A stretch of DNA of 64,000 nt, taken from the NCBI GenBank assembly GCA_046563655.1, contig CM102289.1:7192001-7256000 (forward strand). Reading direction: 5' to 3'. This stretch comes from Yuukianura sp. NJ FZ-2021. Its lineage: Eukaryota. A program made the position numbers and the translations under genes. Under the pieces are notes generated by a model. That model had not been told where the DNA came from. It made no database searches and worked only from the letters and a program-made list of their open reading frames with translations. Shown here piece after piece: positions 1 through 39,649 of the stretch; positions within the stretch are counted from its first letter, which is position 1, and every line of letters starts with the position of its first letter.

Positions 1-135
1 GCTCTCTGTCTATCGTCCTACGAATGTGAAGCAGCAGACAATGCACAGGAGAAGGAACGCCTCAAGTATTTGCGAAATGAAGGCAACGCCAAAAAACTTT
101 TTTCAGGCAGTACGGAAAAAGAGGATCTCAAATAG
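1..135 (+). CDS. Possible 3' end of an upstream gene (ALCLSSYECEAA...EKEDLK*)
   Basis: Open frame from base 1 to TAG at 133-135, followed by AT-rich UTR-like sequence with AATAAA near 365. No recognisable domain. Confidence 0.3.
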   Translation, partial: ALCLSSYECEAADNAQEKERLKYLRNEGNAKKLFSGSTEKEDLK

Positions 136-843
136 TTGTGTCAAAAATTTGGATTTCAAAAACTTAGAAACTGGAGGATTTTGAAATTTACAACAATATT
201 TGTCTACCCTTGCACCTTCTTCTTTTGGAACTGCTTTTTTAAATTGATGTTCACAGTAATTATTTCAATGACAAACTGTCTAGTCACTTAAACTGGTTGG
301 TTACCCAGCACTAAGGTTAACCTTTTACCAAAACATTTCAAGGTTTGATGTTCACTGTATTCTGAATAAAAATTTATTCAACTTAAACATTTAACAAAGT
401 ACTATTATTTGTTTCTATAATGATTACTTTAATATTTGCTTTGGTTGTAAAGTAGTAACGATAGCAGGTACAAAGGCATTTGGTTGCATACGAATCTATT
501 GAACAAAAAATTATGAAGGTTATCAACAACTAGGAATCCACTGTTTGAATTTTAAATCCTTACACGCTTGCTGTATTCAAAAGTTCAAATCTCCCTAACA
601 TTTAAAAACAACATTAGTTGAACACAAAACCTAAACTAATCGGTAAAATAATCGAGCCTAACTTCCCAACTTTAAAAACTAATTATGCTCAATGTAGTTA
701 ATCTTGCCTAATTAAGTCAAAAGACCTTTTGGAAAAATTATTTTGGGTAGACTCGACTACTGTAGTAAAATTTGAAAAACAAAACGGAGCATACACAAAT
801 ATTTCTAAAAACAGAACTTTTCTAGAGTTCATTAGACTACGTG

Positions 844-2415
844 ATGGTCCAGTTTAACACATTAATACTGTTCTGCTTCACGGCTGTTCAACTTACTGAT
901 CATCAACATTTTCTCAAAGGTAACCCGTTAATTAGTTGTTAAATTTTTAATTATTTTTAGTTTATTTTTGAAAAATAGTGTGGAGACATAAAAGCTATTG
1001 CTCTTTATATATTTACAGTCAAGCACGTTGGACACAATTTGCTCAGCGTCGTTAGTCGCAGTGAATACGCATGCGTAAGAAAAAGATGTCGCATTGCTAT
1101 AATTTCTGACCATAGTGATCCAGCGTTAGAAGAACTTGGGACAGAGGGGGCTGGAGGTCAAAATGTTTACGTGCGACAATTTGGGGAGCATTTGTCGCAA
1201 CTCGGCTGGGACGTTGATATGTTCACACGGCAGTGGCGGAAACAGCCGAGGATTGTTCGTCATAATCCGAATTGTCGGACGATTAGACTTAGAGCTGGTC
1301 CGTTTGAAAATATACATCGAGATATTCTACTACCTCATATGGACGAATTCTTAAAGTCATTTCTACACTTTCAAGGGCAAAATAATGTTACATACGATGT
1401 GATTCATACAAACTACTGGTTGTCAGGAGTCGTCGGGGTCAAGGTCAAGCACATTTCCCCTTCAATACCGCTTGTGCATGTGTTTCACTCTTTAGGAAAG
1501 GTCAAGGACAATTGGCTTCAAGGTCAAAGGTCATCAAGAACAAATATTTCAGTTCATACGGGTACCAACGAGAGAATTGAAGCTGAACAAAAGATACTGG
1601 ATGAAGCCGATTTGATAATTGCTACCAGTCCTCATGAAGCGCAAGATTTTGAACGCCATTATTCAACATCAAAGTTCAGAAAAAATGTTGTCGTGGTTCC
1701 AGCGGGGGTGAACTTGGATCACTTTGGGGTCACGGGGTCACGTGACACAAAAATTCAAGCCCGCGAAAAGCTTAGCTTAAACCCAAATTCAAAATTGGTT
1801 CTTTACGTAGGAAGATTTGACCGCCGAAAAGGCATTGACGTACTGGTTGAAGCGATTAGCCAATCAGCGTTCCGCGATGACCCGAACTTTCAACTTGTGA
1901 TTGCAGGCGGAACGACTGAGGGAATGGCAGACGAAGTTGAATTCAAACAAATACGAAGATTAGTTCATCAAAGAGACATGCAGAATTCTACAAAGTTTCC
2001 CGGACGCTTGACCTTAGGTCAACATAATCAATCGCTTCAAAATTGGTACGCCGCTGCCGATGTTCTCGTTGTACCGAGTCAGTATGAACCTTTTGGTTTG
2101 GTTGCAATAGAAGGAATGAGCATGGGAGTTCCAGTTGTAGCGAGTCGAATTGGCGGTCTACAGAGTACCGTTCTGCACAACGAAACCGGTTTTCTTGTTG
2201 ATCGGGGAGATTTTACCGGTTTTTCGAACAGAATTGACCAAATTTTAAAAAATCCCGGGCTGGGAGCCAAGCTTGGAAAAGCGGGAAGAGACCGAGTTGA
2301 AAAACATTTTTCTTGGAAAATTGTTACGGAAGAAATCGATCGACAACTACGGAAGCTCATATTAAGAAGAGGAAAAAAGCCAAATGACTGTGCAATTCAA
2401 TTTTGTCAAGCTTAA
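844..2415 (+). CDS. GT4 glycosyltransferase resembling cyanobacterial single-domain sucrose-phosphate synthase / MshA family; two exons (844-919, 1019-2415)
   Basis: Motifs IAIISDHSDP..GAGGQNVYVRQ..GWDVDMFTR, HTNYWLS, HSLG, YVGRFDRRKG, PSQYEPFGLVAIE. ATG at 844, donor AAG|GTAACC at 920 and acceptor TTTACAG| at 1018 splice in frame (phase 1) to the 1039-2415 ORF. Confidence 0.85.
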
Positions 2416-2508
2416 TTTTAATTAACGGTGATTTTAATTACTACTCATAAATAAGTACGTGTTATATTAAGTAATTTTAGTATATGTTGACTCATACTGT
2501 TCAGTATA

Positions 2509-5500
2509 TTAATTGTAACCGATGCAACTTTCAATCTTGTGTGGAGCACATATCTTACTTTTTTGATGTGCTTTTTTGATTGTCTTCGGTCCTGTCACAG
2601 TTGATGTAGCACGGATTCTCCTGCGAGCAAAAATAATGTAAATTTTGAATTTGAAAATTAAACTTTGAAATTTTGAAGAAAATGTATTTAAGACAAGTAC
2701 AATTTTACGACGAGCCGGTTTTGGTGGGATTTGCAATCTTCGTTCCTCGTCGGTCATTTCATCCAAAGTGGCAATTGGTGGATTCAGTTTTGGCAGTGGA
2801 GGAAGATCTCCCTTTGTCGACTGAGGCTTCTTAGGTGGAAGGCGTGGTGGGACCAGGGGTGGTGGCTCCAATTCTGAGCAACCTTGGGATGGCGGCTCTG
2901 CACTTTTGCCTTGTCGAATTCCGTTCTCAACCGCCATTGCACCCGTCGATTCTTCCTTTTCTAATTGTTGCCGAAGAAACAAGTAGTCTCCGGAATATTG
3001 ACTTTCTCTTTGGCTAGCATTGCTATTTCGGGATTGACCTTGACTTTGACGTTGACCTGCACCCAAATCTGCTTCGGTGCGTCGTTTACGCAGAAAACTT
3101 AAGTCGGGACTTCCAACTTCACTTTCTTCTAAAACGTTTGTCAGTGAAGAAGATTTTCGTCTTGGAGTGTAAAACGTAGAATTTGAAGTAGGATAGTTGA
3201 ACCCGCAAGCTAGAAAAATTACAGTTTATGATGTTTTTCCAATTAGTTTTTGAAACGAGTTTTTCAAGTTTTTCAAAATTTCAATTTTGGCTTCTTTGGA
3301 CTTACGCGATGGGAGTGTCGGCGTGGTAAGTTCGGAGGAAGACGAAGAGGAAGATGAATCTTCGCTGTTTCTTAATCCAGCGTTTGAAATTTTCTTCCTT
3401 GCTGTAATTTAAAAGTAGAATTCAAAAATTGCTTCATTTGAATTGTTCGGATTTTTTTTTAGAAAATCCAAAATCTAATATTTTTTTTTTAAGTTTTACC
3501 TCGTCTGAGCCCGTTAATGACTCTGTTCATGAATCCAGGTTCCTTGTTTGTGTTTCTTTTCATTTTACCTTGAATCTCAAAATACTTTTCTCTCAAATCT
3601 TCCAATGCCTTTTGGTTCTCTTCGTTGAGGACCAGAAACTCTGGAGAACGATTCAGCATCAACAATTCCTGTTCAATTTGTTCCCGCGTTTTATTTTCAG
3701 TTAAGAGCGCATGCTCCATGATTTTAAGCAACTCTTTGTCCAAAGCGTCCAGTTCAACACCCATTGCCTTTACGTCATTGGTTGAAGTAGAAGGAGAAGT
3801 TGGACCTGGAAGCACTTCTTCATTTGGAACCGGTGACGGTAGTCGTGGAACCCGTGTTCGTTCTGGTGTCGGTAATCTCGGTACCGGTTGGTTGTACTCT
3901 TCCGGGGCAAGTTGTTGATCTGAAACCGGTACGCGTGGAACCGGACGGGGGTAGCACACATCTTCCTCGTCACTCGTCGAATCCCGAATGAGTAATGTTT
4001 GAATCGGGTTTCTGTTGAGTCGTTTAAGAGTGCTCCCAGGAACATAGCCTTCCGGTTTTAGATCAATGTAGTTATCAGCTAGAAGCAAACTAGCAGTACC
4101 ATCTCCCTTCTGAACCAGTACAGGAGCTTGAACTTCGCGCGGTGGAGGCGGAACTTCGTAAAACAAAACAGGGCGCGGATTTGGCGGTACGCAGTATTGG
4201 CTTTGCTGTGGACTATCTTTTCTTTCGGGTAAAACCGGGGGCAAAACGAGTTGGATGTTAATGTATTCAAGTTTGGCTTCTTCACCGTCAGCCGAGTCCG
4301 GTTCTTCTTCCGGAATAGTATCGTTGGTAGTAGTTTCGGTTCGACTCGGAACCTCTGGAGCATCGGAATTCGAAGCAGCTTCGGCGTTGGGTTGGACCGA
4401 GGTTGCTACTCCTGTACGTCTACAACTTGTAACTGGCTTAATCGCTTCCCAAATGTAACCAATTGACTCATATTCTTTAAAAATTTGTCCAACTGTGGCA
4501 TCGTGACCTCGTCTCTCGGCCATTTCCGAGGGCGTCTCTCCGTATTGATTAGTTGCTTCGACGGAGTTGAGTCCATCTTCAGTAGCTAACATAGATACGG
4601 CAGTTTCTTTCAACCCATAGTACGCTGCAAAATGCAGAACCGTAGGCAGCAGGTCCTCTGAAACATCCAAGGGCAAGTGACTCAGAAGGAAAATTGCAAA
4701 TTTCAAAATTTTGAAAAAGGAAATCCGTCTTTTTTTTGTGGTTATCGGTTTTGAAATTTTTTGCGATTTGGTAATACATACCTCGCCCATCCAGAAATTG
4801 CTGGAGAAGCAGCAGGCTTTCTACGGTAGAACCCTGACTATACGCTTGTTCGATGGCTCGAGAAATATGATCGTCCAAATATTGTTTGTATCCAGGAAAT
4901 TTCTGAAAATTTTTGTCAAAACTTCCATTTTTCTTGCTTTTTAAAAATTTGATTTATTAGAAACAGAAATTAGTACCAAAATCATTTGATCGATTGGATC
5001 ATCACTGTTTGCTTCTCTTGTTCCAACTATAAACGGAGCATCAATTTTCAAAATTGAGTTCTGCGATGCAGATGGCGACAGATTTTCTTTACAAAAAATT
5101 AAAATAAGGATTTCAGAACTTCGATTTTTTTAAAACTGCGTTACCTGGAATCTGAACTGTAGTGGAGTACACATCGTCTCCTTTTCTAAGTTCGATTTTT
5201 AAAACATCCGATGGACCAACGGCTTCATTGAGCTTGATTGTAATCGTTTCCGTTCCTTCGTCAGATCTTGTACACAAGAGAAGTGGTTTGACACAGGATG
5301 CGTGACGTCGTCGTCGTTGCGGTTCGTCCGGCGCAGCTTCAACTGCGGTGTTCCCAGCACTAAATGCCGAATCTAACCGTGGATGTGGAATTCTAGATTC
5401 ATAATGTCTGGCTCGTCTGTTGTAACTTTGAATCACAAACTCTCGAAATGTTGTGGAAAACATAGCGTCAATTTTGGGTCTGTTTGTCCTCAGTTCAAGA

Positions 5501-6037
5501 ACGTTCCAGTCCATAATGTGTGGAAAAACTGAAACCATGAACAAGTTTTTTAAAAATTCGCAGTGGGCAGTGATTTTAAAAAATTACGGTTTGCATGGCT
5601 TCGGTAGACGTCTTCGGATGTTAGTCCTGTGAGAATGCAAATGACATCAGTAGAGTGAAGGACTCTGTTCAAATGTAGTTGACAGTAGTTCCTCCTTCCA
5701 GAATTTCTGAGTACGTCCAGAAACGCATGCGTGACTATAAGAATCTGAACTTTGGCTTTTCGAATGGTAACGGCAACGGTATTGTGACAAACTTCCAACA
5801 AATCGAAAGATTGAACCCTAGATTTATAACAATAATGGATTAAAGATGAGTTAAAGTATGTTAACGTTGATTTCTTCCGTAGAATAGCAATAGGTTGGGT
5901 TAAAACAAATGTTACCGCAGTGAAACGTTTCCAACGTCTCCCCTGTTGATCGAATCCAAACAATGTAGCACAGTTCGTTCTGCATTTTCACTAAAAATGC
6001 TACCTTTGCAGCTAACAATCACAACTTGAACGTCCAT
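2509..6037 (-). CDS. PIK3AP1/BANK1/Dof (stumps)-like signalling adaptor, multi-exon
   Basis: N-terminal TIR-like segment, ankyrin region LPTVLHFAAYYGLKETAVSML..NQYGETPSEMA, Pro-rich tail with tyrosine motifs (YINI, YCVPP, YEVPP). Exon ORFs 5550-5963, 5113-5544, 3489-4790, 2509-3066. Exon boundaries are approximate. Confidence 0.7.
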
Positions 6038-6559
6038 TTTCTATTTTTTTTAAACTGACTAACTATAGGAAAATATTTTTAATTTAGTTAGTAATTCAGA
6101 TTTGTGATAATTCAATAACTTTTCCTTTGCTTTGTGCTAAAAATCGTTTAACAATGTTTATTTTATTTAATTAATAACATTTAGATGTAAAACTAAGAGC
6201 TAAAAGAAATTTGATTTAGTGTGGTACGTGTAGTTTACTGCTTGAATGAAATATTGAAACTGATTACATTTTGATTTGCCGATTTCGAATTTGATTCGCC
6301 TCCAGGCACCCGGAATTGACGAAAACCACAGAAAATGTTTTTAAAAATAAAATTTCCTGTAAACATGACGTAGTTTTGAATGAACAAAACTGAAACAAGT
6401 TTGTGGCTGACGAAGTTTTACAAAGTTAAACGAGAAGTGTATCAAAGCCACTAACTCAGCTATCTCTAATTTTAGAATATTAAAATGACGTAAAACGCGC
6501 AATGTATAAAAAAAATGGAAACGTTGAAGTGACATGCTAACTTTTTTTTTGGTTTTTAC

Positions 6560-7934
6560 AGTATGTACATCTTAATTTCTTTGAGCTGTCCGATCTCAAA
6601 TTTTTGCAAAAATTCCTTGTCGTTGGGAATTGCATGAGTAGAATACGCCTCCTCCAAATGCATGTACACATCTGCGCATCGCTGAATAAGCTTCTCAAAA
6701 TTTTCATTTACTTGTCGTCGAATGTTTTCAACCTAAAAAAAATTGAAATCAGAGAAAAACTATTTTTGGCTTCTTTCTTGTTTTTTTAAATTTTTACCAT
6801 TTGGAAAAGTGTAGTTTTCTTCTTTGCAATTCGTTTGTTCTGCCATATTACCCACGGAAGAAAATTCGAAATGGAATCTGCGTGGTGCTCTAAAAATCTT
6901 GGAATTTTAAATAGCTTCAAATCGGCAATTGGAAATTTTTCTGAAAAATTCTCAGGCTCAGAGACCACAATGCTTTTAGCAGTATCAATAACTGTATCAA
7001 TGAAGGTTATGAATAGTGAGCAATCTTCATCTCTCCTCGTTTCTTCATAATATAACTTTTGAAACAGTTGGCGCAATTGAAACAGTGCTGAGTATTTGAA
7101 CTTCGATTGTTGCTGATTTTCACGCCTTGTCAATTTGATTCCAGAATGATGTAGCCTCAAAATGGATTCCATGAGTTCTGGTGGCCTGTTAATAACAGCC
7201 AGTACAGTATCATTCATCATCGTCTGTAGTACCTTTTTCTGAAAATTCAAACCAAAACTGAATTCAAACCAAAATTTTGAAAAAATGACTTTGAAGAAGG
7301 CGTTGAAAAAAGCGAAACACAATTTTATACCTTTTGCGAAATTTCAGCCGATAGTTGACGCAGAATGTCAAACGAATTTTTCCAGATTTGTGCCAAAAGT
7401 TGTTTGTGTTGTTCTCGTGAATAACTGTTGGTTAAATTTGCCACGTAACTACCATTGGCCATTTCATCAACTTGGTCTAGCTGTTTGTGTAAATTGTCCA
7501 ATGCTTTTTCCAGGTCGACTCCAAACCACGTCTTTTCATTCCTCAAAAATTGAATGTGTGCATCAACCTTCAAAGCAGAAGAAAGTCATACATGGTTAGC
7601 TTTCCAAAATTAAAGACTTAATTCGTGATCTAAATTTGTATAATTTTGACGCGGCGTTCAATTTTCGATTTCAATTTCAGATTTTGCATTTTTCTGAACC
7701 TACCTTTGAATTCGCATCGACAAGTAGATTGTAAAGTTTGACTGTATTATTTAAGTCATGCACTATCTCTTTATTGTACGAATTGATACCGTACAGAATG
7801 CAAAAAATCACGATCATAATTCTTTGAGTCAGGCGCTTAATATTAGTTTTGAACAAAAAACAAAAGTAGAAAGTGTTCAGAAAAAGGAAGGTATTGAACA
7901 AAAACTCGCGCGAAGACATCCTTTGAACCTCCAT
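6560..7934 (-). CDS. Uncharacterised multi-exon protein
   Basis: Consecutive minus-strand ORFs (7677-7934, 7325-7573, 6786-7322) separated by short AT-rich intron-like spacers. No recognisable domain; ends are uncertain. Confidence 0.45.
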
Positions 7935-8613
7935 TGTTCCTAACTGACGGACTAACCCAGGAACAGTTTGTCAAACTGGCATCTTTATTTTCTCTTAGAA
8001 TTCGAATCGAAATGTAAACAACCCACAAAATGTAATACAAACAATTGAGGCAATATGAGTCATTTGCTGAGACTACGAAAAGTTTAAAATAAACTTGACA
8101 AAAAGAAAGTAATAAAATCCAAACTTAAATATTAAATGACTCTATTCTGTATGTCTATTTGATTTTTTTTTCAAAACTTTGTTTAAAAAGCATTCTAGTT
8201 AAAAAAAACATCGATTTTGCGGGGTTTCAAAATAGATTCAAAATGTTTATAATTTTAAATTAACGTTTTTTTTCAAATTTTCCCAAACTTAAGCTAGGTA
8301 AAATTGACACTTGAATTTGTTTAAACTGCTGCTATTGTCAGTTCTCCAATAAGCTTATCACTGTCTGAAACAAACATTTCGTACATAAAGCTGTTCACAG
8401 AATACGTATGTTTATTTAATATTAAGCGAAATGACAATTGAATTCCTAGTTGGTAATAATAACTGTTTGGCAATGTAAACTTGGATGTTAAATTGGTAAT
8501 TTTAAAAGAACTTTGTTATGACTGCCAAGAAATTCAATCACATAACTGGTGATGAATTTAAGTATCAACATTCAACAAAATTTCCAGTGAAGATATTAAC
8601 TTAAACAGGAAAT

Positions 8614-10262
8614 TCATTGAAAGCATGCCTGGATTTCCTCTAAACTTTTTCCTTTTGTCTCTGGAACCGTAAAATATATTGAAACGAATCCGATAAAACA
8701 AGCAATTGCATAAATCCAGAAGCACCAATATATTCCAAGTGCCGCAGCAACAGTGTCGTAGGACTTCGTTACAAGAAAAGCACTAAGCCAAACCAGCATT
8801 GTTGCGATTGATGAGCAAGTACCTGAAACAACCAAAAGGTCAAAGGTCAAACTAATATTTCAGTAAATTGGAACATTATTCCTCGAAAAGTTGTAGAACT
8901 GACCTTTGACATTTGGCGGCAAAATTTCCGCCATTAGTGTCCAACTCAACGGTCCAATTCCTATGCTAAACGCTACAATAAAAATGAGCATTCCAGCTAA
9001 AGGGATCCACCTTATGTAATCCAAGTAAGGCGGTTCTGGTGGTTGAGACAAGTAGAAAAATGTGCCCATAGCAACTAAACTTCCTCCCATGACAATTTGT
9101 GGCCCAAGAAGTAAAACACGACGACCAAGCAGATCCACCATAATAGACGATCCAATTGTGGCAATTACTTGAACAATGCCGACAATTACACTGGACAAGT
9201 TTTGATCCAATGACGTCCGAGCTTCGCTAAAAATTTCTCCGGCATAGAATATAAGGGCATTGAATCCACTAATTTGTTCAAACACCATTAGAGATAGAGA
9301 AACTGCCAGAGGTTTCAGTAGCTGACCTTGCATGAGGTCAGTAACTTTTGTACTCTGCGCACGAGCTTCAGCAACACTTTCAGCCAAAGCTGTCAATTCC
9401 AAGTCGATTTCTGAATGGTGCGAACCAGATTTAGAGCCTTTGAGCCACTTAAGTGACTTTTGACAGTCATCCAGTCTTTCTTTTTGTACAAAGTATCTTG
9501 GAGATTCCGGAATCAACGGAATCATAACAAACATTATACATGGAATGCTGCCGCTCAAATAGGCCAAGTATCTCCAATTCAAAAGACTTCCGAAAACATA
9601 CCTGAAAAAACGGAAACGTTTTAATTTCACTAAGAAATTTTAGTCGAAAAGTAAAAAGTTACGTGAAAAGTATTCCAGTGACGAGCATCAGTTGAAATAG
9701 TGAGAGAAGCGTTCCGCGAATATTGTTGTCCGAAATTTCTGAAATGTAAACCGGAGCAATCAGACTGAATGCCCCACCAGCAAATCCAGTTAAAAAACGT
9801 CCAAGAAGCAGAAGCCAAAAGTCTGGAGCTAGACCAATCAGAATCCATCCTAAGATGAACGGAACGCAGTAAACCGCCATACTCCTCTTGCGTCCGAAAA
9901 TGTCAACGGACATTCCCGCTAATGGTGACACGACCAAGGCACCCAACATTGCAATCGACGCAATCCAAGATGTCGCTTCAACTGATAGTGTCGCTCTACT
10001 GCCCCCTGTCATGTTTCTGATTGGTCCAAACGTTTCATCAATTTGTATTAACGGAAGTGCTGGAGAAGTATAGGCAAGGACGGTGCCGAGACTAAACACA
10101 CCAATTGTAGCTACAAAAACGTTTACAATTGCAACATGAAAAAAAAAGCTCACTTTGAAAAATCGTTTTGACAAACAAATACTATTTAGCTTTACCAATG
10201 CAAGACGCAAAAGACTGATGAATAACTCCCAACGTCTTAGACGGTAAGCTGTTTTCGTCCAT
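8614..10262 (-). CDS. Facilitated trehalose/sugar transporter, Tret1-like (MFS sugar porter)
   Basis: Motifs DIFGRKRS, VYISEIS...RG, PESPRY, QISGFNALIFYA, DLLGRR, PETKGKSLEEI; four exons, ATG at 10262. Confidence 0.92.
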
Positions 10263-11005
10263 TTCGAAATTCAGCGGCAACTTGGGTACGGAAACCAATA
10301 TTTGTTTTGCTGGACGTAGCAAGACTGTTCTTTTAGTATAACAAGTGAATGAACATTAACTGAACGCAAGGATAATTTTTTATTTTCTCATTACTATAGT
10401 TTCAAGTTAATATTTTTCCAGTGATGGCAATTTTCTAACTAGAAGGTGTAAGTGTTAATTAGCACCGACGTAACACACTCAGCTATACTTAAATACAGTA
10501 ACACGCCTAAACTAAAATCAATGTTAATTTTAATACTTTATACGTATAGTCTATGTCTAATTGACTTCCAGCGTCATTAAGTGCATAGTAGCAACTTTTC
10601 AGTTTAAATAATGTCCAAACATAAGGAAAATATTCCAATAATGCGTTTAGAAAATTTGCAAGTCAAATTCTAACTGACTTGAATTTGGCCAAAGTTGTTT
10701 TTTTTACTCGTCCGTTCTACATGTTTTCAACTAGAATTCGTGCTAATTTGAAAAAAATTTTGAAATATGGCTTATATGAATCTTTATTGTCAAAAATACA
10801 ATGCGAGTACCAGATCAATTGCCTATCAACTGCTATTTTCAACCCAAATTGATTAGCTACACTTCACAGTTAGTAATCCTAATCTAAAACATCACAAGTT
10901 AACTCCCTTGTTTAATCTTGATAATATGTCATGGTTTGGCATAAAACCCACTTCAACATCCAGAAAAAATGAGCCTAGGCATTCTCTCTTCGCAAAACTT
11001 CGAAA

Positions 11006-12477
11006 ATGGCTTTCAACATAGCAATTTTAGTTACTTTTCTGGCGTCTCTGACCGGAACATTCGCCGCCATCTTTGAAACGGCTCCAAATTTCTTTGGGCA
11101 GCTCTACATCACGCAAGACTCTCCACGCGGTTTATTCGTCGACGAATCAGGCGACCTTCTGTCCCTAAGTAAAGGACCAAGAGCTATTCTTGCAATTACT
11201 GAAATTGTTGAAGACGATGGCACAGTTAGCCTCCTGGAATCTGACCTTGTCAATGGCCGTACTTATGGAATTGGTCTCAACCACGCCGTGATCCACCATC
11301 AAGGTTACTTGTACGCTTCTAGTGATACTGCCGTTTACCGATGGCCGTATGTCGCTGGGTCACATGACCTTGGACCCCACGTTCCTGCCGAAACCGTCAT
11401 CAACAACATGGCTGGCGGTGGGCATATCACCAGAACACTCGCATTTGATAATCAAACGATGATGCTCTACATTAGCATTGGATCCAACGCTAATATTGAT
11501 CCAGATTCCTCACGAGCAAGAATCCGAAGATTCGATTTGTCTAATAACGCCGTGCTTCCAATTGATTTTGAAACAGGAGAGGTACAGTGCCTCGACATTA
11601 CAAAAAAAATGACTATCTTTGCGTATAGTAAAACTGGAGTGTTTTTGGCAAATTTGAAATGTTAATTTAGCACTACTTGAATCCGATTACATCACTTTTT
11701 GCTAAAAATTGTTGCAGGTTTATGCTGATGGGCTTCGGAACGAAGTTGGAATTGCGTTTGACCTGAGTGGAGTGCTCTGGGGGGTTGAAAACGGCGGGGA
11801 TAACTTGTACCGTGAAGATTTGGGAGGCGACATTCACAATACAAATCCGGCAGAAGAGTTGAACCGGTTTGACGGTCCGATCGGTACTCATTATGGCTAC
11901 CCGTACTGTTTCAGTACCTACACTCTGGATGGCTATGAACCACTTACACAATTTGCATGGCCAGACAGCATGAACGACGGAGTTCACGATGACGCCTGGT
12001 GCAAAGATGTCAACAACGTAAGAAACATAACTCAACTTTTTCAATAATCTGTCAAAATTGAAAAAAAAATGTGTTTTTTAGAACCGCAAACCCCATCTTG
12101 GTATGCCTGCTCATGCTGCACCTTTGGGCATCGCATTCTACGATGGACAAGGCTGTGACACTGTTCCAGGAGCCTTTCCTTGTGACATGATCGGAGACGC
12201 TTTTGTGGCTTTGCACGGTTCCTGGAACACTGATAACGAGAAAGTCGGTTACAAAGTCATCCGGCTTCCATTTACAAAAACAGTACCGTCTTTGCCAACT
12301 GGAGAACAGTTGGATATCATCTACGAACCGGACGTGTCGAATTGTCGGGACTGTTTCCGACCAGTGAATGCCGTTTTCAACAAGAATGGTCACATGATTG
12401 TTTCATGTGACTCGAGCGACGAATTGTTCAAAGTCACTTATGGAACAGAACCTGCTCCAATCAAATCTAGAAAGTGA
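11006..12477 (+). CDS. Secreted PQQ-dependent sugar dehydrogenase-like beta-propeller (L-sorbosone dehydrogenase / AA12-like); exons 11006-11581, 11718-12017, 12082-12477
   Basis: Signal peptide MAFNIAILVTFLASLTGTFA; motifs GSNANID, GLRNEVG, NPAEELN, HYGYPYC, HAAPLG, HGSWN, FRPV; two clean phase-0 GT-AG introns. Confidence 0.85.
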
Positions 12478-16086: not shown

Positions 16087-17836
16087 ATGAGCACGATGCT
16101 CCACCCTCCTAAGCCGCTTGGATCTAGTCGTAGAAGATACGGAACTTTTGAAGTTGATGTAGAGAATCTCCTATTAAGGGTATCGAAAAAAATTTGCAAA
16201 ATTGAAAAATTTGCAAAGTTGAAAAAATTGCGAATTTGATTTTTCTTATTTTGAATTTGTGTTTTAGGACGCAAATTGTCCCGTTTCAAACGCTACTTTC
16301 ATTCCTATGGTAACCGATACAATATCAGCGGAGTATTGCCAACAATTTTTGTTTTGAAAACATGAAATTTGAGTATTTGTTTTGTTTTTTGCAAGCCAAA
16401 TGATGATTCTGGGTACTCCACAAAAGAAAAAATTCGGGCAGTCTCGCCGCTTCCGCGCAGACGCAGACTAATGTCAATGGAAAACACGAGCTTGACGGAA
16501 GTGATCACCGTCTACGAAAAATTGAAAAAAGGGCGCGAAAACAGGGTTTACCGCCAGTCCACTTTTCCAAATTCTCCAGTTCCGCGTAGAATAGATGCTG
16601 AATTTAGTGAAGCCGAAGAAACTATTCCGATTGTGCCGTCGTTTCATGTTCAGTCCGAGAGTGTTTCTCAACTTCATGTTTTGGATTTCAATAAATTTAA
16701 CAAAGGATTCAAGCACAGCAAGTACCTGTATTTTTCCAGTAAAGCCAATCTACTCCAAGCGGACTTTATTGAACAGTTGTCACCGGGACCTGATTTTACG
16801 GAACTGCTGCAAGAGAAGAACTACTGGCTAAACATTTTTGATCCAAATGACCAAGACTTTGGCATGTTGTTCAACTGTTTTGGTGTCCACGATCTTACGA
16901 TTAGCGACATTCGAGAGGGAAACACTGAGGAAAAAATGGAACCCTACAAGCACTATACGTTCTTCTCACTCAGATTGGAAAATTTTCAAGTTTTGCAAGG
17001 CGGTGACAAGCGGGAAAATGAAGACGTTGACTTCAACATTTTGTTATTCAAAGACTTCATTATCACCGTCCACGACAAGTACGTTAACCTATAACCTCAT
17101 GCATGACTTCGTTTTTCATAAGTTTCAGATTTCGAAAACGTTTTTGACAGTTTTCAAAATTTTTTTTTTTAGAAAATGGCCCAGTATTACCGACATTCTG
17201 GGATTTGTGAATCTCCTCTCCGCACATTCCACGGTGCTCACTCCTGATTGGGTCCTTTTTTCATGCTTCATTGAACTGAGTCAAGATGCCAAATACGTTC
17301 TAGATCTAATTGAACCCGAAATAAACCAAATTCGGATTGGAAGCAAATCTGCTGACATGTCAGACATCATGCGTCAAAATTTCGCCATGGAACTCCGTCT
17401 CTACTCCATTTCCCGTTTCATCAAGCCCAAAATGCGCATCCTCAGACAGCTCCGTGTCAAATGTTCAAAACGCGTTTCCAAAATTGTTCTGCGTCTTCTG
17501 GGTGACATTCTGGATGAATTCAGAGAACAAACGCAGGATCTGAACCACTTCAACCACATTCTAGAGAGATCTCAAGATACTTTTTTAGCAGTTGTGACCT
17601 CCGACCAGTCACGGGAAGCCAACGAAATGAGTCTGGTGATGAAGAGGATTAGTGAGATTGCGTTGGTGTTTCTGCCAGTGCAGGCGATTGGAAGTTTCTT
17701 TGGAATGAACGTCACTGTTCCTTGGCAAACGGATCAGTACCCATCTCAGATGTACTTTTGGATAATCTGTGCCATTTGTCTTCTCATTGGACTCGCCATG
17801 TACCTTCTAAGAACCCAAATTCTTAAAGTTCACTAA
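16087..17836 (+). CDS. CorA-family Mg2+ transporter of fungal ALR1/MNR2-like type
   Basis: YWLNIFDP..FGVHDLTISDIREGNTEEKME, two C-terminal TM helices with FFGMNVTVPW (GMN signature). Four exons; predicted ATG at 16087. Confidence 0.85.
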
Positions 17837-22999: not shown

Positions 23000-25900
23000 A
23001 TGAGTGGCGAAGATGAAAAATTTGTGGGTGCTCTGGATGTTGGGACGACAAAAGTCAAATGTTTCATTTTCGATCGAAATCTTAGAATTCGAGGAGAATC
23101 TGCTGTAGAGGTAAAAAATTTACAACTATGTTAACAAAATATAAAATTTCATTTGTAGAAATTTCTCTAAACTTGCTAAATTTTTAGGTCAAATTGGAGT
23201 ATGTCCAACCAGGCTGGATTGAAATTGACCCGGATGTTTTGTGGGGTCAAGTCAACTTTGTTATTGAATCAGCAGTGAAAAGTAGGTTTTTAAAACCAAA
23301 CGATACCGTATGTGGTGTTCAAGTACATCGCACTTATACATCTCCTCTCAAACTATCCATCTCCTCTCAAACTATTTCAGTCAGAGGTGATCTAACAGTT
23401 TTATCAGTGAAAATCCATTGTTCCGCCGTTCTCAACAATTACTTGATTACCATTAATCGAACCACTCTCAATTGGATCAGCTGTTTTACTCTACATAAGT
23501 AAGTTTACATAGTAAATGCAGACTCGAAGGTCTCTTTCCATATGTTGTATTGAGGTCAAAAAGATACTGGCACCCCGTTCTGGTATCTATATAGGACTTA
23601 CTGAACGGACGACTACTCATGACCTCAACTGACGTCCCGAACACTCGCGGAAAGAAGCGGAAATCGAAAGACGAAGAATCTCCTTCTACGAAATCGTTGA
23701 AAATGAACGAATTTGATGGAGCCTCCATATTAGCAGCGATGAACAAAATGAATGAAAACATTGCTTCAATCAACAACAGATTGGCAACGAATCACGCTGA
23801 AATCACACTACAATTTCAGTCATTGAACGCGGAGGTCACAGCTATCAAAAACAGAATTCTTGCTGCCGAAGATTCACAGAAATCGCTTTGTTCCCAAGTA
23901 CAATCACATGATACCGAATTGGAGAAACTGCAAATAGCACTTAACAAGAGCAACCTAATCGTCCATGGACTCCAGTATATCCACAATGAGACTACTGACT
24001 CTCTCAAAGCCGAACTTGAAAAAATCTTTGTTCTTGCTCTTCCACTGATCGGTCTTCCACTAATTGATGATAATTATCGCCTAGGTCGCTCTAATCCTCA
24101 GAATCCACCTAAACCGATCAAAATCATCTTTAAGTCTCTTGAAGCCAGAAATGTGATCTGGAAAAACCGAAATTTGATTAAAAACCTATCTCCGCAAATC
24201 AACATAACCCAGGATCTACCGCTTCAGACCAGAAAGAAGATTGCAGCCCGCCGACAATATCCGAATCCAAATACGAACGAACCATCGCAAAATTCACAAC
24301 CTTCTCATTCCCAAGTATCAATGCCACGCAGCAACCAACCAACTTCTCAATTTGCTCGCAGCAGCCTCACTCCAAGGTCTCCCATTCGCACTCCACAATC
24401 TAACCATACACCGTCCTGACTAAGAAATAATTGTAAATCACAAAATCAACTGAAAATTGCTGCTCTGAACGTATGTGGTTTTAATTCAAAATGCGACTCA
24501 ATAAAATTGCTTCTAGACATGTACAACATTGATGTTCTTTGCATCTCCGAAACTCACCTAAACGTCAAACATCCTCCACGCATCGTTGAAGGCTACGACT
24601 TCATCCATTGTGACCGATTATGGCAATCAAAGGGTGGAGTAGGAATTCTTATTCGTTCTAACTTAAAGTTTAGTGAAAAAATCCTTGTCCTACCATTCAA
24701 CAGAAACTTTGAAGTGGCTTGTGCTGTGATCCAATCAAATTTTCACAAATCGATTATTGTTTGTAGTGCATATCGAATCCCCGACTACAGTGCAGAGTCC
24801 ATTACGACTGATCTCAATTCAATTTCAGAACTGCTTAATGATCTCAGTGCTTCAAACAAAAACTGTTTTGTCTTAGGGGACTTTAATCTAAATCAGAAGT
24901 ACATCCCCAGATCGTCTCAGAAACTGTTGAAACAAACAATGTCCATCTTTGAGCAGTTAGTGAATGTTCCTACTCGTGGTGACTCAGTACTTGATTTAGT
25001 ATTCACAAATAATCCGAAGATCGTACTGAATCTTAATGTAGCCGACCCATGCATCTCGGACCATCACATGACGGAAATCTCGATCAACATCTCTAAGCCC
25101 AAGTTCACGAAGCAGACAAAAACCTACATCGATTACAAAGGATTTGACTTTGTAGAATTTGGATTAAAGAACGTTTTCACCACCTTCGACAATATGTCGA
25201 TCAACTTAAATGACCAAGTTCTACTATTTATGCAAAAACTGAAGGCGAACTTTAAAGAAACTGTTAAAATCAAAAAATTCAAATTCTATCCTCACAAATG
25301 TGTGCTAGCAATTTCAGACTACACAAAAAGTGCAATTTATGAACGTGACCAATTGCTCAAAATCAAAACCAAATCACTTAGTCAAGTCTCTCAACGCAAA
25401 GCTCTAAAAAAGAAAATCAAATTCTTAGTGTTGTGTGACAGAAAAAACTCTTTAAATGCTGACATTGAAAAATTTGGACCATTTAAAGCAATTGACAAAA
25501 TCAGAGCAAAAAAAGTGAAAACGTCTCATCAAATTCCGTTAAGTGCAAACGAAATCAACCATTATTACACTACAATTACCACTCCTCAAAGTGTTAGCAG
25601 TCAGTATCCACTACAACCATCTTCAATTGTTACACCGTCGGAGCGCTTCATCCTTGAAGAAATTGATATTTTGACTTTTGACAAAGTCTGGAAAAGTGTA
25701 AAAAACAAAAACTCTAAAAGTGCAGATCGCTTTGATATTTCCAACTGGATTCTTACTCATAGTGTCGGTGCCCCGAATATTAAAAACCAACTCGTGAATC
25801 TGATAAACAAAAGCCTCTCTTCCGGTACTTTTCCATCTTCGCTCAAGCACTCCACTGTGATTCCACTTGCAAAAATCGAAAATCCATCTCACCCTTCCGA

Positions 25901-28900
25901 CACGAGACCAATTTCGCTTCAACCAACTTTAGGGAAATTAATTGAAAAAGTGGTTCACTTGCAACTGACTAAATTTCTTGACAGAAACTCTATTCTTAAC
26001 AGTGCACAATTTGGATTTAGAGCAAATCACTCTACTACAATGGCACAGTTGGCTTTAACAGAGCTAATTTACAATCATATTAATCGCGGTGAAGTGTGCT
26101 TAGTGATTTCATTAGATCTGAAAAAAGCATTTGACTCAGTGGACAAGGGAATCCTTATTGACAAGCTAAAATGGTATAACATTTCGACTGAGTGGTTTCA
26201 ATCATATTTAGACAGCAGGACCCAATGTGTAAAGCTTAAGGACAGTGTCTCCACCAGCAGTGAAACAATATTATCAGTGCCCCAAGGATCAGTTCTTGGA
26301 CCGCTCCTATTCGCAATTATGATCAATGATCTTTTGAGCGTCATTGTTGATGGCTCCGCAATACTATTTGCGGATGACAATAACATTGTTATTGGCGACC
26401 TCCCGGCCAAAATTTCTTCACTGATCGCACGAGCTGAAAACATTATCAGCAAAATTGATGAATGGATGCATCTCAACCACATGGCGCTGAATATTGACAA
26501 AACCAAAATTCTACTTGCAGGAAGTAAGAAGCTAATTAAGAAAATCGGACCAATTCAACTTAAAATTCGCAACTCCTACATCCAGAGCATAACATCTTTC
26601 AAATCTCTTGGCCTTATCATTGACAACACTCTCTCCTGGTGCGACCATATCAGTGCAGTTGCAAAAAAGTGTAACAATGTCCTTTGGTCGTTCTATCCAA
26701 TCCAACACATCCTCAACGAAAAACACCGGAAGCTGATGATCACCTCTTACGTCTCTCCTATCCTTCGCTACATGCTCATAATTTGGTCAACATGCAAATC
26801 TACTCAGTTTAAATGCATCAATAAATTGTTCCGGCGATGTGTGCGATTCATCTTTCAACTAAAACGACGGGATTCAGTAAGTTTGAGAATAAACTCGGAT
26901 CTGAGCTGGCTGACTCCCTTACAACTCTGCCAGTTTGAACTTATTCAAACGGTTTCTAAAATTTGGTTCTACAATATTCCATACTTCCAAAACTCAATTA
27001 CAGAAATTCAACAGCGTCTTCTGGATACACGGTCCACCAGAAAAGAAACGTACATTCGCACTAACAAAAAGTTTCACCCAAATTCGTTCATCAATCGAGT
27101 CTCAACTACAATCATCTCTCTTCCTAGTGATCTACAACATCTTGTCTTCAGTAACTGCTGCGTTTCAATTAAGGCTAAAACTAATTTTTTGCAATTTTTC
27201 CTAAACAAACAAATAGAATTATTTAATGTACAAAATACAAACAGAATCGACTCACAATCATCACCTACTTAACTAGCCGTCTAAATTTTCACCTTAAAAC
27301 ATCTAATCTATCTATACATTCATCACTCTTTTAAAATTTTACAATAATCTTAAACTTAGCCGAGAACACAATAATTTTAAATATAATATTAATTTTAAAT
27401 TAGATTACCTAACTGAGGTGTAATAACCTGCTAATGCAGGAAACTTTCAGAATAAATTGAAATTGAAATTGAAAGATAAGCTAACTATACAAAATGTAAA
27501 TGCAATTTCTTTAAGCCTCTTTCACACTGGATACGCCGCAACAACTGCCGACGGCAGTTGTGCCGGCGTAACAAACTGCCGTAGAAAGTTGTTGAAGGGT
27601 TTCACACTGCACCACCGGTTCTTTTTACGCCGTAAATTTTTTCTACGGAAAGTTATACGACGGTCTCGGTGTGATACAGCTTCATTTGGTCACAATTCTT
27701 GAAAGGCTCCTTTCAGTTTCATATGGGAAGACAAATGAAGTAAATGAATTGAAAACAACCAAATGATTACAAGTATTCATGTGTAATTGCTCTATTACCA
27801 TGCTTTGGGAGGAGTAGCCAACGTATTTCCCTATAGGGTGATGTATTAACACAAATTAATAGCTAATTAGCACAATTAGCTATTAATTAACACTTAAACA
27901 ATGTTATACTTTTGTTTTTCCTACTTCGGTACTGCTGATTACGTAGAAAGAAGGAGGGAAGGATGATCAGCTGGGATGAGATGGGAACTGTCCGTCCGGA
28001 GTTGGTCCAAAAGTTGAAACTTTTCAACTTTTGGGGGTCCCAGCTCCTCCTGTAGGAAGAGTTGACGGCGTAAAATGTGACGGCGGCAGCCGTGAGGCAA
28101 TGTGAACACCTCACTCGTCTTCCGCCGTCAACTTTCTCTTCCGTCGTCCAACTCACCGGCGGTGAGTTGGTTTGGTGTGAATGGATACGCCGTCACAACT
28201 GCCGTCGGCAGTTGTTACGACGTATCCGGTGTGAAAGAGGCTTTAGACATATATCTTAATTGTGTTAACTAACTTAATACAGATGCAGGAATTTCTCCAG
28301 CGAAACTCGTTGGTCTCAGTATTTCCACACAACGTTCAACATTTTTATGTTGGGACGTCAACAACAATACAAAATTGCACAACATAATTTGCTGGAAGGA
28401 TACACGAGCTGATCATTTAGTGAAACAATGGAACTCATCTTTGTACTTCAAAGTAATTCCTTAAAAAAAACAACTTAAAAATCACAATTCAGAAATTTTC
28501 AAAATTGAAACTTTCAAATTACTTCTTTCATTATGTTTTAAGGCATTCCGTTTGCTTTGCAAATTGTTATACGGCCTAACTCGGAACAAACGGTACCTTG
28601 CTGGCAGCGTACTTCGTGTCATGAACGAACAGGTAATGTTTCTAAGTTAAAATAATTTAAAGTTAATTTAACATTTAAGTACAACTAATTTTTCAGGTTG
28701 TTATGAGGCTACTGTGGGTTCTTAAAAATGTGCCTGGAATTCAACAGCGAGTGGCAAATAATCAAGTTCGATTCGGAACTCTCGATAGTTATTTGGTTTA
28801 TAAGTTTACAGGTAAGATTTCGAAAATTTTATATCATTTAGTTTTTGGAAATCTATGAGCAGATTTTTTTCATTTCCAAATTTTTAGATGGAGAACAACA

Positions 28901-30198
28901 TGTTACGGACTTTAGCAATGCTTCACCGACCGGATTTTTCGATCCATTTGAAACGTCTTGGGCTTCATGGGCACTTCAAATGTTCTCCATTCCCTCCTCC
29001 ATACTGCCTACAATTGTGCCTACCGTTGGAAACCACTTTGGATACTGCCGCATCTTCCCCGAGAAAGACATTCCAATACTCTGCGTCATTGCAGACCAAT
29101 CAGCGTCCATGTTTGGATCGACATCATTCCATTCAGGAAATGTCAAAGTCACGCTGGGAACTGGAGCCTTTCTGGACGTCAACACTGGAGGCAAACCGCA
29201 TGCGTCTGTGAACGGAATTTATCCACTCGTGGCTTGGAAGTATGATAACGAGCTGGTGTACATGGCAGAAGGGCATTCTAAAGATAATGCAATCATTGTT
29301 GACTGGGGGCTAAAAATTGGTGAGTTTTAAAAATTTGAAACGCTAAAAAACATTGTTTGAAAAAACCAATTTTTGAAACGCTTCTAAAATTTCTTTATTA
29401 GGTTTATACGACAGAGTGGAAGATTCCAGTGTAATTGCTTCATCCGTTTCTAGTTCAAATGGCGTTTACTTCATTCCTGGGTTTAACGGCTTTCAGGTAA
29501 AATTCCACCTTTAAAATTTTTTGTGTTTTTTTTTTTTGATTTATGAGTCTCAACAAATTTCAAAAATTGTGTCATTTTTAATGCAATATAGGCTCCATTT
29601 TATGATACCTCTGCCTGCGCCGGATTCATCGGAGTTAACCCGGGTACAGAACGCGGTCACTTAGTCCGAGCCCTTCTTGAAAGTTTGGTGTTCAGGGTCA
29701 TGCAACTGCTCAACGTCCTTCAAACAGAAACTGACTTCACTTTCGACTGTGTCAGGTACATGGAATTTAAAATACTGAACTTTTTAAAACCAATTTTTAT
29801 AAATTTTTGGTGTAAATTACTATAGGGTTGATGGTGGAGTAGCCAAAAACGATTTTGTACTTCAAACTATGGCGAACTTAACGGGGAAAAGAGTAGAACG
29901 TCCGGCTTGTACGGAAATGACAGCCGTTGGCTCAGCATTTTTGGCGGGGATGCAAGCAGGTATGAACTTTGAACTAAAAAAATTCAAATAATTTAATGAA
30001 TTGTGTATTAATATAAGCAATTTTTCCTCACTTACAGGAATTTGGCACAACTTAAATGAATTAGAACAACTACACAAAGTTGAGAAAGTATTTTTGCCAA
30101 ACATTGAAGAAGAAGAGGGTGTTCACAGAAGTTTTGTGGAATGGGAGCGGGCTCTGGAACGATTTTTGAAATGGTCCAAAAAGAAACCATCTTTGTGA
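23000..30198 (+). CDS. GK5: Glycerol kinase 5-like (FGGY family), multi-exon, with a 5 kb TE-filled intron 2 (23282-28282)
   Basis: FVGALDVGTT, PGWIEIDPD, STQRSTF, WKDTRA, TDFSNASPTGFFDPF, ADQSASMFG, KVTLGTGAFL, VDGGVAKNDF. Confidence 0.9.
23619..24419 (+). CDS. LINE ORF1 (coiled coil plus RRM/L1-ORF1-like domain)
   Basis: Coiled coil followed by KSNLIVHGL..YRLG..PKPIKIIF..INITQDLP. Confidence 0.85.
   Translation: MTSTDVPNTRGKKRKSKDEESPSTKSLKMNEFDGASILAAMNKMNENIASINNRLATNHAEITLQFQSLNAEVTAIKNRILAAEDSQKSLCSQVQSHDTELEKLQIALNKSNLIVHGLQYIHNETTDSLKAELEKIFVLALPLIGLPLIDDNYRLGRSNPQNPPKPIKIIFKSLEARNVIWKNRNLIKNLSPQINITQDLPLQTRKKIAARRQYPNPNTNEPSQNSQPSHSQVSMPRSNQPTSQFARSSLTPRSPIRTPQSNHTPS
24420..27272 (+). 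CDS. LINE ORF2 (APE endonuclease + reverse transcriptase)
   Basis: LKIAALNVCGF, ISETHL, GDFN, SDH; RPISL, QFGFR, DLKKAFDSV, VPQGSVLGPLLF, FADD. The frame is open from immediately after the ORF1 stop codon. Confidence 0.95.
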   Translation, partial: LRNNCKSQNQLKIAALNVCGFNSKCDSIKLLLDMYNIDVLCISETHLNVKHPPRIVEGYDFIHCDRLWQSKGGVGILIRSNLKFSEKILVLPFNRNFEVACAVIQSNFHKSIIVCSAYRIPDYSAESITTDLNSISELLNDLSASNKNCFVLGDFNLNQKYIPRSSQKLLKQTMSIFEQLVNVPTRGDSVLDLVFTNNPKIVLNLNVADPCISDHHMTEISINISKPKFTKQTKTYIDYKGFDFVEFGLKNVFTTFDNMSINLNDQVLLFMQKLKANFKETVKIKKFKFYPHKCVLAISDYTKSAIYERDQLLKIKTKSLSQVSQRKALKKKIKFLVLCDRKNSLNADIEKFGPFKAIDKIRAKKVKTSHQIPLSANEINHYYTTITTPQSVSSQYPLQPSSIVTPSERFILEEIDILTFDKVWKSVKNKNSKSADRFDISNWILTHSVGAPNIKNQLVNLINKSLSSGTFPSSLKHSTVIPLAKIENPSHPSDTRPISLQPTLGKLIEKVVHLQLTKFLDRNSILNSAQFGFRANHSTTMAQLALTELIYNHINRGEVCLVISLDLKKAFDSVDKGILIDKLKWYNISTEWFQSYLDSRTQCVKLKDSVSTSSETILSVPQGSVLGPLLFAIMINDLLSVIVDGSAILFADDNNIVIGDLPAKISSLIARAENIISKIDEWMHLNHMALNIDKTKILLAGSKKLIKKIGPIQLKIRNSYIQSITSFKSLGLIIDNTLSWCDHISAVAKKCNNVLWSFYPIQHILNEKHRKLMITSYVSPILRYMLIIWSTCKSTQFKCINKLFRRCVRFIFQLKRRDSVSLRINSDLSWLTPLQLCQFELIQTVSKIWFYNIPYFQNSITEIQQRLLDTRSTRKETYIRTNKKFHPNSFINRVSTTIISLPSDLQHLVFSNCCVSIKAKTNFLQFFLNKQIELFNVQNTNRIDSQSSPT
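27514..28242. mobile_element. Non-autonomous PIF/Harbinger-type MITE
   Basis: About 57-bp imperfect TIRs AGCCTCTTTCACACTGGATACG... / ...CGTATCCGGTGTGAAAGAGGCT, flanked by TTA TSD (27511-27513, 28243-28245). Confidence 0.85.
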
Positions 30199-39529: not shown

Positions 39530-39649
39530 TTCCCGAGCGTTCTTGAATCTTGAGTTTGTCCGATGTTTTCAATGGTTCAAATAGTTTACAAATAAAAAGT
39601 TGATGAGGACAGACATGTGTGAATAGAATAAAGCGATTGAGACAGGTCG

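Follow-up and report, generated by a model that had tools for sequence, protein, structure and literature searches.

The window analysed here is a 64,000-nucleotide stretch of the genome of Yuukianura sp. NJ FZ-2021 (GenBank assembly GCA_046563655.1, contig CM102289.1, positions 7,192,001 to 7,256,000 of the forward strand). At positions 844 to 2,415 it carried a two-exon gene for a glycosyltransferase of CAZy family GT4, which is probably a domesticated cyanobacterial enzyme of the sucrose-phosphate synthase (SPS) type: a retaining glucosyltransferase that acts on a phosphorylated sugar and is routed to the secretory pathway by its leader. The springtail lineage would have received, by horizontal transfer, a gene of the Tll1590/TeSPS clade (GT4, GT-B fold), which would afterwards have been extended at its 5′ end by an exon for a short hydrophobic leader, set off from the bacterial body by a phase-1 intron. 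Both termini would have been lengthened by stretches that contain cysteines, and a loop next to the acceptor pocket by an insertion. The ability to make sucrose is generally ascribed to cyanobacteria, plants and a small number of other microbes, whereas animals rely on trehalose, polyols or glucose. In this springtail the only committed enzyme of the sucrose pathway has been maintained by selection with its predicted substrate-binding residues untouched, so that the production of sucrose, or of a similar glucoside, by some animals becomes a directly testable question.

Gene anatomy, integration and selection

Exon 1 (844-919, forward strand, as are all parts of the gene; 76 nt) held the start codon and a 25-codon hydrophobic, signal-peptide-like leader, ending in phase 1. 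From the ATG at 844, which lay 175 bases 5′ of exon 2 and six codons 3′ of an in-frame TAG at 823, it translates to MVQFNTLILFCFTAVQLTDHQHFLK plus one base. A 99-nt phase-1 intron of spliceosomal type (920-1018, GT..AG) followed, with donor AAG/GTAACC at 920 and acceptor TTTACAG/TC at 1018/1019, and joining the two exons across it restored the reading frame; its GC content was 0.22, compared to 0.44 for exon 2. Exon 2 (1019-2415, stop codon 2413-2415) contained the whole GT4 (GT-B) glycosyltransferase body, and the GT4 frame was intact over 490 codons. The earlier note, made from the sequence alone, had described a 76-nt exon, a GT-AG intron and a 1.4-kb GT4 exon at these positions, all of which are present, as are the motifs that it quoted, in the translation of exon 2. 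Domains and ligand sites are numbered below on that translation (P0001), in which Pfam placed an N-terminal, acceptor-binding Rossmann domain (Glyco_transf_4, residues 45-233, positions 1153-1719, E 5e-22) and a C-terminal, nucleotide-sugar-binding Rossmann domain (Glycos_transf_1, residues 246-424, positions 1756-2292, E 1.6e-40), both far past chance.

An upstream exon is required, since the stop-to-stop frame of exon 2 (979-2415) offered no in-frame ATG ahead of the conserved core, its first in-frame methionine codon lying within the DMFTR motif, well inside that core. The pair 844/919 was the sole exon-proximal, phase-compatible combination of upstream ATG and GT with a consensus-like donor. 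A 1-base deletion at 990 was present in most read contigs, and the open frame at 979-1018 is therefore taken as non-coding. The predicted 919/1019 junction was supported indirectly, by the best-supported indels, two of which fell in the intron and none in an exon, and by an equivalent leader exon and phase-1 intron in a metagenomic homologue described below.

The host is a springtail (collembolan) with Allacma as its nearest annotated relative, as judged from an exon of glycerol kinase 5 (28887-29327) that was 71% identical to Allacma fusca, 63% to Orchesella cincta and 52% to Folsomia candida, and around 50% identical to crustaceans and beetles. Allacma belongs to the order Symphypleona. An octocoral host, which the terpene synthase and P450 arrays of the window could have suggested, was rejected on the strength of the glycerol kinase result. 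The window was AT-rich (GC 0.32-0.43), and in a Pfam scan the flanks of the gene contained animal genes for a major facilitator superfamily (MFS) sugar transporter, a carboxylesterase, a rhodopsin-type G-protein-coupled receptor (7tm_1) and several cytochromes P450 (P450s), as well as a non-LTR retrotransposon. The glycerol kinase identities and these neighbours bear out the animal host that the earlier note had supposed, and identify it as a springtail.

Five DNA sequencing runs from two studies matched the stretch, and four of them were compared over positions 1-8000. One contig of 31,591 bases from run X2 spanned the whole of this region with 194 differences and 57 gaps, and looks like the other haplotype. 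The best-matching DNA run may be the window's own source sample, and independent support came from X4, a run of the other study under another organism label, which covered 321-1375, 1436-1901 and 2188-2593 with approximately 4-5% differences, at a depth of about 4 over the gene versus about 8 over the flanks. GC at third codon positions (GC3) was 0.369 in exon 2, compared with 0.35-0.46 in six host exons. Contig linkage to the flanks, reads from a second study, host-like GC3 and the pattern of variants together establish that the gene is integrated in the animal genome.

That pattern was read from the best-supported differences over positions 1-8000. Of the 40 best-supported among 452 single-base differences, 31 fell in exon 2, where 17 were synonymous and 14 non-synonymous (binomial p 9e-5 against an expected 22.5% synonymous under a uniform mutation model, an expectation that transition bias would lift somewhat). 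None of these 31 created a stop codon or hit a ligand residue, and 8 of the 14 non-synonymous changes lay at residue 417 or later. Among the 12 best-supported of 58 indels, two were in the intron (7 nt at 942 and 1 nt at 990) and three in flanking sequence, and both exons were free of them. The GT4 gene is therefore under purifying selection, and the domestication claimed in the earlier note holds in both respects, the gene being integrated (X2 contig, X4 reads) and maintained (synonymous excess).

Cyanobacterial affinity and the active site

A word-indexed search covered 5.8 billion proteins, and the first of its best 120 hits was a metagenome protein (P0002) at 53% identity; every organism-named match among the next 119 was a cyanobacterium at 45-49%. 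When 1.84 billion cluster representatives were scanned with HMMER without filters, P0002 was the only protein above 50%, with the runner-up at 44%, and a search of the ESM Atlas gave the same cyanobacterial affinity. The best 80 genome loci among 185,579 prokaryote species comprised 68 titled as cyanobacteria (41-48% identity), eight from Chloroflexota or Thermodesulfobacteriota (33-38%) and four labelled 'uncultured bacterium'. The window's own protein was absent from the protein collections searched (word-indexed, filter-free HMMER and ESM Atlas), which fits the statement, in the text of PMC13638087, that most springtail genomes are unannotated; no protein of an annotated springtail was among the best 120 word-indexed hits, where a copy of 40-50% identity could rank lower.

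Two relatives grouped with the window protein. One was encoded on a metagenome contig of 2,718 bases (L001), whose GT4 homologue was 55% identical to the window protein; the other was a protein of the mermithid nematode Romanomermis culicivorax (P0128, UniProt A0A915I903; 42% identity, C-terminally truncated as deposited). In a maximum-likelihood tree (49 rows, 434 columns, LG+C20+F+G4; eight loci in which the match ran into a neighbouring gene were omitted), the window protein grouped with L001 (support 100/99) and this pair with the Romanomermis protein (97/88), the trio sitting on long branches. All cyanobacterial rows and the trio formed one clade (99/94), in which one cyanobacterium (Aphanocapsa) and P0122 branched outside the trio. 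As the tree ignores gaps, shared indels provide independent support for the trio: one extra residue in the DP..E.G loop, and an insertion of 4-9 residues after Lys162 by the acceptor pocket, which was absent from all ten of the other rows inspected. In the window protein this lineage-specific insertion, placed in the loop at 1507-1563, was nine residues long. The trio also carried E-[GS]-M-[SR]-M in place of the cyanobacterial E-A-M-A-S.

A protein of the hagfish Myxine glutinosa (P0125, annotated 'D-inositol 3-phosphate glycosyltransferase-like') fell in the same cyanobacterial-type clade on a branch of length 1.82, unlike a fresh contaminant, and had neither a leader nor the indels of the trio. 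A single clade of the four animal-labelled sequences, hagfish included, was not rejected (AU p 0.47). On this phylogeny, the gene is not a one-off but one member of a small eukaryotic clade, to which a nematode protein also belongs.

The AlphaFold2 model of the protein (pLDDT 90.5, pTM 0.89) was weak only at residues 1-20 (below 55), in the loop 171-180 (about 55) and at 451-464 (below 55, and below 50 at 457-464). Its best solved match was 6KIH, the SPS Tll1590 (TM 0.92, 40% identity; phmmer E 7e-86), followed by MshA (TM 0.92, 30% identity; E 6e-57). Sequence searches, loci, tree and structure match thus all agree with the closeness to cyanobacterial single-domain SPS put forward in the earlier note, and its view of MshA as a more distant relative is matched by the second-best solved structure, the NCBIfam scores and the structure comparison. 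The search and phylogeny that it had proposed as a check returned cyanobacteria as the best named matches, and not vertically inherited animal GT4 enzymes.

Tll1590 is a biochemically demonstrated SPS that converts UDP-glucose and fructose-6-phosphate to sucrose-6-phosphate, as reported in the text of PMC7264703. There, H158A and E331A mutants were inactive, with H158 binding O6 and E331 O3 of glucose, R105 and R178 holding the sugar phosphate, R249 and R253 the UDP phosphate, and P332, L335 and E339 lining the donor site (PMC7264703). All nine residues (numbering in the PDB chain is native plus 3, derived from the phmmer alignment to 6KIH) are kept in the window protein, as R100 (R105), H156 (H158; codon 1486-1488), R185 (R178), R265 (R249), R269 (R253), E356 (E331; codon 2086-2088), P357 (P332), L360 (L335) and E364 (E339). 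The N-terminal domain also holds K162 and the C-terminal domain K270. In the 49-row alignment, 15 positions were compared, and at each the window protein matched all 25 named cyanobacterial rows. Four of the 15 (Q47, R100, R269 and P357) set these rows apart from the Chloroflexota/Thermodesulfobacteriota outgroup, whose residues there are M, K, L/I and S. L001 departed at three of the 15 positions (Q47V, R185Q, L360T) and the Romanomermis protein at one (R100A).

NCBIfam had no model for the Tll1590-type clade. The MshA model TIGR03449 scored the window protein at 265.7 bits and cyanobacterial orthologues at 291-311 (cut-off 462.5), and the SPS N-domain model TIGR02472 gave 157.2 and 147-161 bits, respectively (cut-off 576).

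The donor family is tied to sucrose metabolism. Single-domain SPS is widespread among cyanobacteria, according to the text of PMC9971976, and the text of PMC9909042 describes tll1591, which adjoins tll1590, as encoding a glucosylsucrose synthase. In a Phormidium locus (L033, 2233-5025, forward strand), the homologue (3565-5025) lay directly 3′ of an orthologue of that enzyme, TeGSS (E 3.9e-159 to 7FG9). Five further loci omitted from the tree opened with a near-identical N-terminus of the neighbouring gene, and a sixth, L043, did so after a longer upstream start. As a side observation, the pairing of tll1591 with tll1590 is kept beyond Thermosynechococcus, in L033 and in loci L025, L038, L043, L068 and L069.

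The leader and the predicted reaction

Residues 7-17 of the leader were the most hydrophobic 11-mer of the window protein (Kyte-Doolittle 2.35). Its best 19-mer reached only 1.20, too short a hydrophobic run for a membrane span, so the leader resembles the core of a signal peptide. The layout is kept in L001, where an ATG at 832 opens a 67-nt exon that translates to MYSCLHFLSVFIVLSVTSPCAT (Kyte-Doolittle 2.58) and is followed by a donor (CAA/GTAAGT), a 75-nt phase-1 intron (GC 0.28) and an acceptor (TTTAG/AA); its GT4 exon likewise has no ATG of its own, and the database protein P0002 begins at an internal GTG. The leader of the Romanomermis protein has a basic n-region, a hydrophobic core and a c-region ending in SQA, with a cysteine and a basic stretch before strand 1. 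The most hydrophobic 11-mer of each of these three proteins lies in its leader, and, by eye, the leaders of L001 and Romanomermis have acceptable cleavage sites. The cyanobacterial rows of the alignment begin a few residues ahead of strand 1. As the gene has a hydrophobic leader exon and this exon is conserved, the protein does not look like a soluble cytosolic protein that lacks a targeting sequence; the sharing of such a leader by the three homologues argues that the enzyme would no longer be a plain cytosolic SPS.

The window protein and L001 share a CxxxxC directly before strand 1, and each has an added C-terminal tail with two cysteines; that of the window protein (2362-2412) is basic and has no counterpart in the cyanobacterial sequences. 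These terminal cysteine pairs might staple the ends together in an oxidising compartment; AlphaFold2 is unconfident in these regions. N-glycosylation sequons (five in the window protein, four in L001, with NST/NIT before FPG at the same site) were not clearly above chance and were not used.

We propose that the chemistry would be unchanged in kind, with glucose passed from UDP- or ADP-glucose to a phosphorylated sugar by a retaining (SNi-like) mechanism and, given the intact ligand set, fructose-6-phosphate as the acceptor expected by default. For donor and acceptor alike, the prediction draws on residue conservation. The leader would send the protein into the secretory pathway (the lumen of the endoplasmic reticulum (ER) or Golgi, or secretion), shifting the site of the reaction and possibly its acceptor; such routing is the most likely outcome given the hydrophobicity of the leader and its conservation across three lineages. 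Sucrose synthesis by the springtail is an inference that a secretory-type leader makes less straightforward, and one of several readings.

Several points weigh against a luminal SPS-type enzyme of cyanobacterial descent. Fructose-6-phosphate is no obvious metabolite of the secretory lumen, and the window leader, by eye, shows no clean small-x-small cleavage site. L001 (R185Q) and the Romanomermis protein (R100A) have each lost one sugar-phosphate arginine and, together with the insertion beside the acceptor pocket, these losses suggest that the acceptor of the animal-type clade may have drifted. The window protein lies under both NCBIfam cut-offs, as do its cyanobacterial orthologues. When the 28 cyanobacterial rows were forced to exclude the trio, the likelihood fell by 7.1 lnL (AU p 0.059), so that nesting of the trio within the cyanobacteria is favoured over a sister position, but not significantly. 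The variant figures come from the 40 best-supported of 452 differences, and expression and splicing of the gene are predicted from DNA data.

Part of this evidence fits a neofunctionalised retaining NDP-sugar transferase of the ER or Golgi lumen, with a different acceptor and a product other than sucrose-6-phosphate; candidate acceptors would be a sugar phosphate other than fructose-6-phosphate, a polyol phosphate, a glycan, or a small molecule destined for secretion or the cuticle. A leader kept in three lineages, the insertion that the trio has in common next to the acceptor site (after K162) and the extra residue of the DP..E.G loop, the arginine lost in each of L001 and Romanomermis, the long branches of the clade, the additional cysteines near both termini (as would suit an oxidising compartment) and the odd match of a luminal enzyme with fructose-6-phosphate would all be explained. 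Insect UGTs, which are ER-luminal GT-B enzymes with N-terminal signal peptides and use UDP-glucose, offer a precedent. The window protein, however, keeps the nine Tll1590 ligand residues and four clade-specific ones, which would be unexpected after a change of acceptor, and no result here points to a candidate acceptor. We regard a change of acceptor as possible, with the odds against it.

A plain cytosolic SPS, giving a sucrose osmolyte or cryoprotectant pathway, would require either a hydrophobic N-terminus that does not function as a signal peptide or the use of another start, and we think it unlikely. The complete SPS ligand set and the ties of the donor clade to sucrose and glucosylsucrose synthesis would suit such an enzyme; the window leader is the weakest of the three, with a hydrophobic core of about ten residues and no canonical cleavage site, and an MFS sugar transporter gene lies about 6 kb away. 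Exon 2, however, lacks an ATG of its own, and a leader-exon layout kept at 55% protein identity, along with a leader in the nematode, would be hard to explain if the leader were functionless. No sucrose-phosphate phosphatase was found by Pfam scan among the 105 open reading frames of at least 75 codons in the 64-kb window, and, with sugar transporters being numerous in arthropods, the neighbouring gene may be there by chance.

That the gene is a relic, integrated but silent or decaying, is very improbable: the absence of an annotated-springtail protein from the best 120 hits may mean that its distribution is patchy, but the intact 490-codon frame, the synonymous excess, the restriction of the best-supported indels to sites outside the exons, the retention of all catalytic residues, and intact frames in the L001 homologue and the nematode protein all speak for a maintained gene. 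Cyanobacterial contamination or an assembly chimera, which the bacterial nature of the best sequence matches might suggest, is already contradicted, as no bacterium exceeded 49% identity, the gene has host-like GC3, an AT-rich GT..AG intron and no bacterial start codon context, a 31.6-kb contig joins it to animal flanks, and the X4 reads of a second study also carry it, at a depth taken as flank-like.

The springtail enzyme is best read as an SPS-type glucosyltransferase with a secretory-type leader. A bolder extension, which we consider doubtful, is an old animal family descended from a single SPS capture, with members in springtails, in one or more nematodes and perhaps in further lineages, re-engineered with a signal peptide and making sucrose(-6-phosphate) or a related non-reducing glucoside via the secretory pathway. 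If true, this would give animals an endogenous route to a 'plant' sugar, possibly for protection against drought or cold or as a secreted product.

Neighbouring genes and comparison with known systems

The sugar transporter gene mentioned above (Sugar_tr, 8617-10270, reverse strand, three exons) lay on the strand opposite to the GT4 gene, and its position could be due to chance. Between the two was a convergent neighbour (2509-7343, reverse strand) whose stop codon lay 94 bases from that of the GT4 gene, with long proline-rich frames that matched no Pfam family. Two intron-split genes, one TrAA12-like (of the fungal AA12 oxidoreductase type; 10979-12474, forward strand) and one for a CorA-like magnesium transporter (16366-17836, forward strand), are candidates for further genes of foreign origin. 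The non-LTR retrotransposon (23595-27272, forward strand) was apparently intact, with a 274-codon ORF1 and, directly after it, a 950-codon ORF2 encoding endonuclease and reverse transcriptase. Terpene synthases of microbial type were found at 38351-39568 (reverse strand) and 53311-54006 (forward strand), each adjoining near-identical tandem P450 genes (exons at 40944-42319, 43695-44942, 46532-48064, 55446-56692 and 61499-62727, forward strand). From its sequence this arrangement looks like a springtail terpenoid gene cluster, and the terpene synthase at 38351-39568 had no relative in the word-indexed protein search. Springtail terpene synthases have been published, in a paper whose main text contains neither 'P450' nor 'gene cluster' (PMC13638087). 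An open frame at 57942-58523 (forward strand), in a GC-richer patch and without a Pfam match, encoded several copies of a glycine-rich eight-residue repeat (GGVEMGFP/GGVQMGFN), and could be a repeat protein or a minisatellite.

Springtail genomes are known to carry many foreign CAZyme genes. According to the text of PMC5490193, glycosyltransferases are among the three largest CAZyme classes of foreign genes in F. candida, so a glycosyltransferase of foreign origin is in itself nothing new in this group. The window gene resembles the foreign CAZyme genes of F. candida and O. cincta in being integrated alongside native ones, in having acquired an intron and in its host-like composition. As far as their texts go, the genome papers of these two species stress degradative enzymes of bacterial and fungal origin, unlike the window gene. 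No SPS-like GT4 or cyanobacterial donor was mentioned in the text and two supplement files of the F. candida paper (PMC5490193), or in the text of the O. cincta paper, whose supplementary table of horizontally transferred genes could list one. A full-text literature search found no paper that reports a GT4 of the SPS or MshA type from springtails, nematodes or any other animal. What is new here is the cyanobacterial donor, the conserved leader-exon layout and the occurrence of the same form in a nematode. The gene provides a clean case of a bacterial gene fitted for eukaryotic use, with a leader exon joined via a phase-1 intron and a layout kept over deep divergence. It also reaches beyond the degradative foreign enzymes usual in soil animals, with a modified form in a nematode and a cyanobacterial-type homologue annotated in hagfish.

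Among characterised enzymes, the closest are Tll1590/TeSPS, the single-domain SPS of Thermosynechococcus (6KIH), and the 'minimal SPS unit' of filamentous cyanobacteria, with the same GT4 GT-B fold and ligand residues and a catalytic body of similar size. In contrast to Tll1590, the window gene resides in an animal genome with a separate leader exon and intron, and its product has a cysteine-containing linker of about 20 residues before strand 1, a nine-residue insertion after K162 and a basic two-cysteine tail; no glucosylsucrose synthase or phosphatase gene adjoins it, and its SPS activity is predicted from sequence. MshA, the UDP-GlcNAc:inositol-phosphate N-acetylglucosaminyltransferase of Actinobacteria (3C48/3C4Q; TIGR03449), shares the fold, a retaining mechanism and a phosphorylated acceptor, and was the best NCBIfam model, but the score of the window protein was far under the cut-off and the tree placed the gene with cyanobacterial SPS, and not with the GGMN-type outgroup. 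To our knowledge, mycothiol does not occur outside Actinobacteria. Two-domain and plant-type SPS (TIGR02472; Halothermothrix 2R60; the Leishmania SPS-like 8UAG) belong to the same reaction class and superfamily, but were only 17-22% identical in structural alignment, and the window protein has no phosphatase-like domain. The Romanomermis protein A0A915I903 (42%) and P0002/L001 (55%) belong to the same clade and have the three indels and the N-terminal hydrophobic leader in common with the window protein, but have each lost one of the phosphate-binding arginines that the springtail enzyme keeps.

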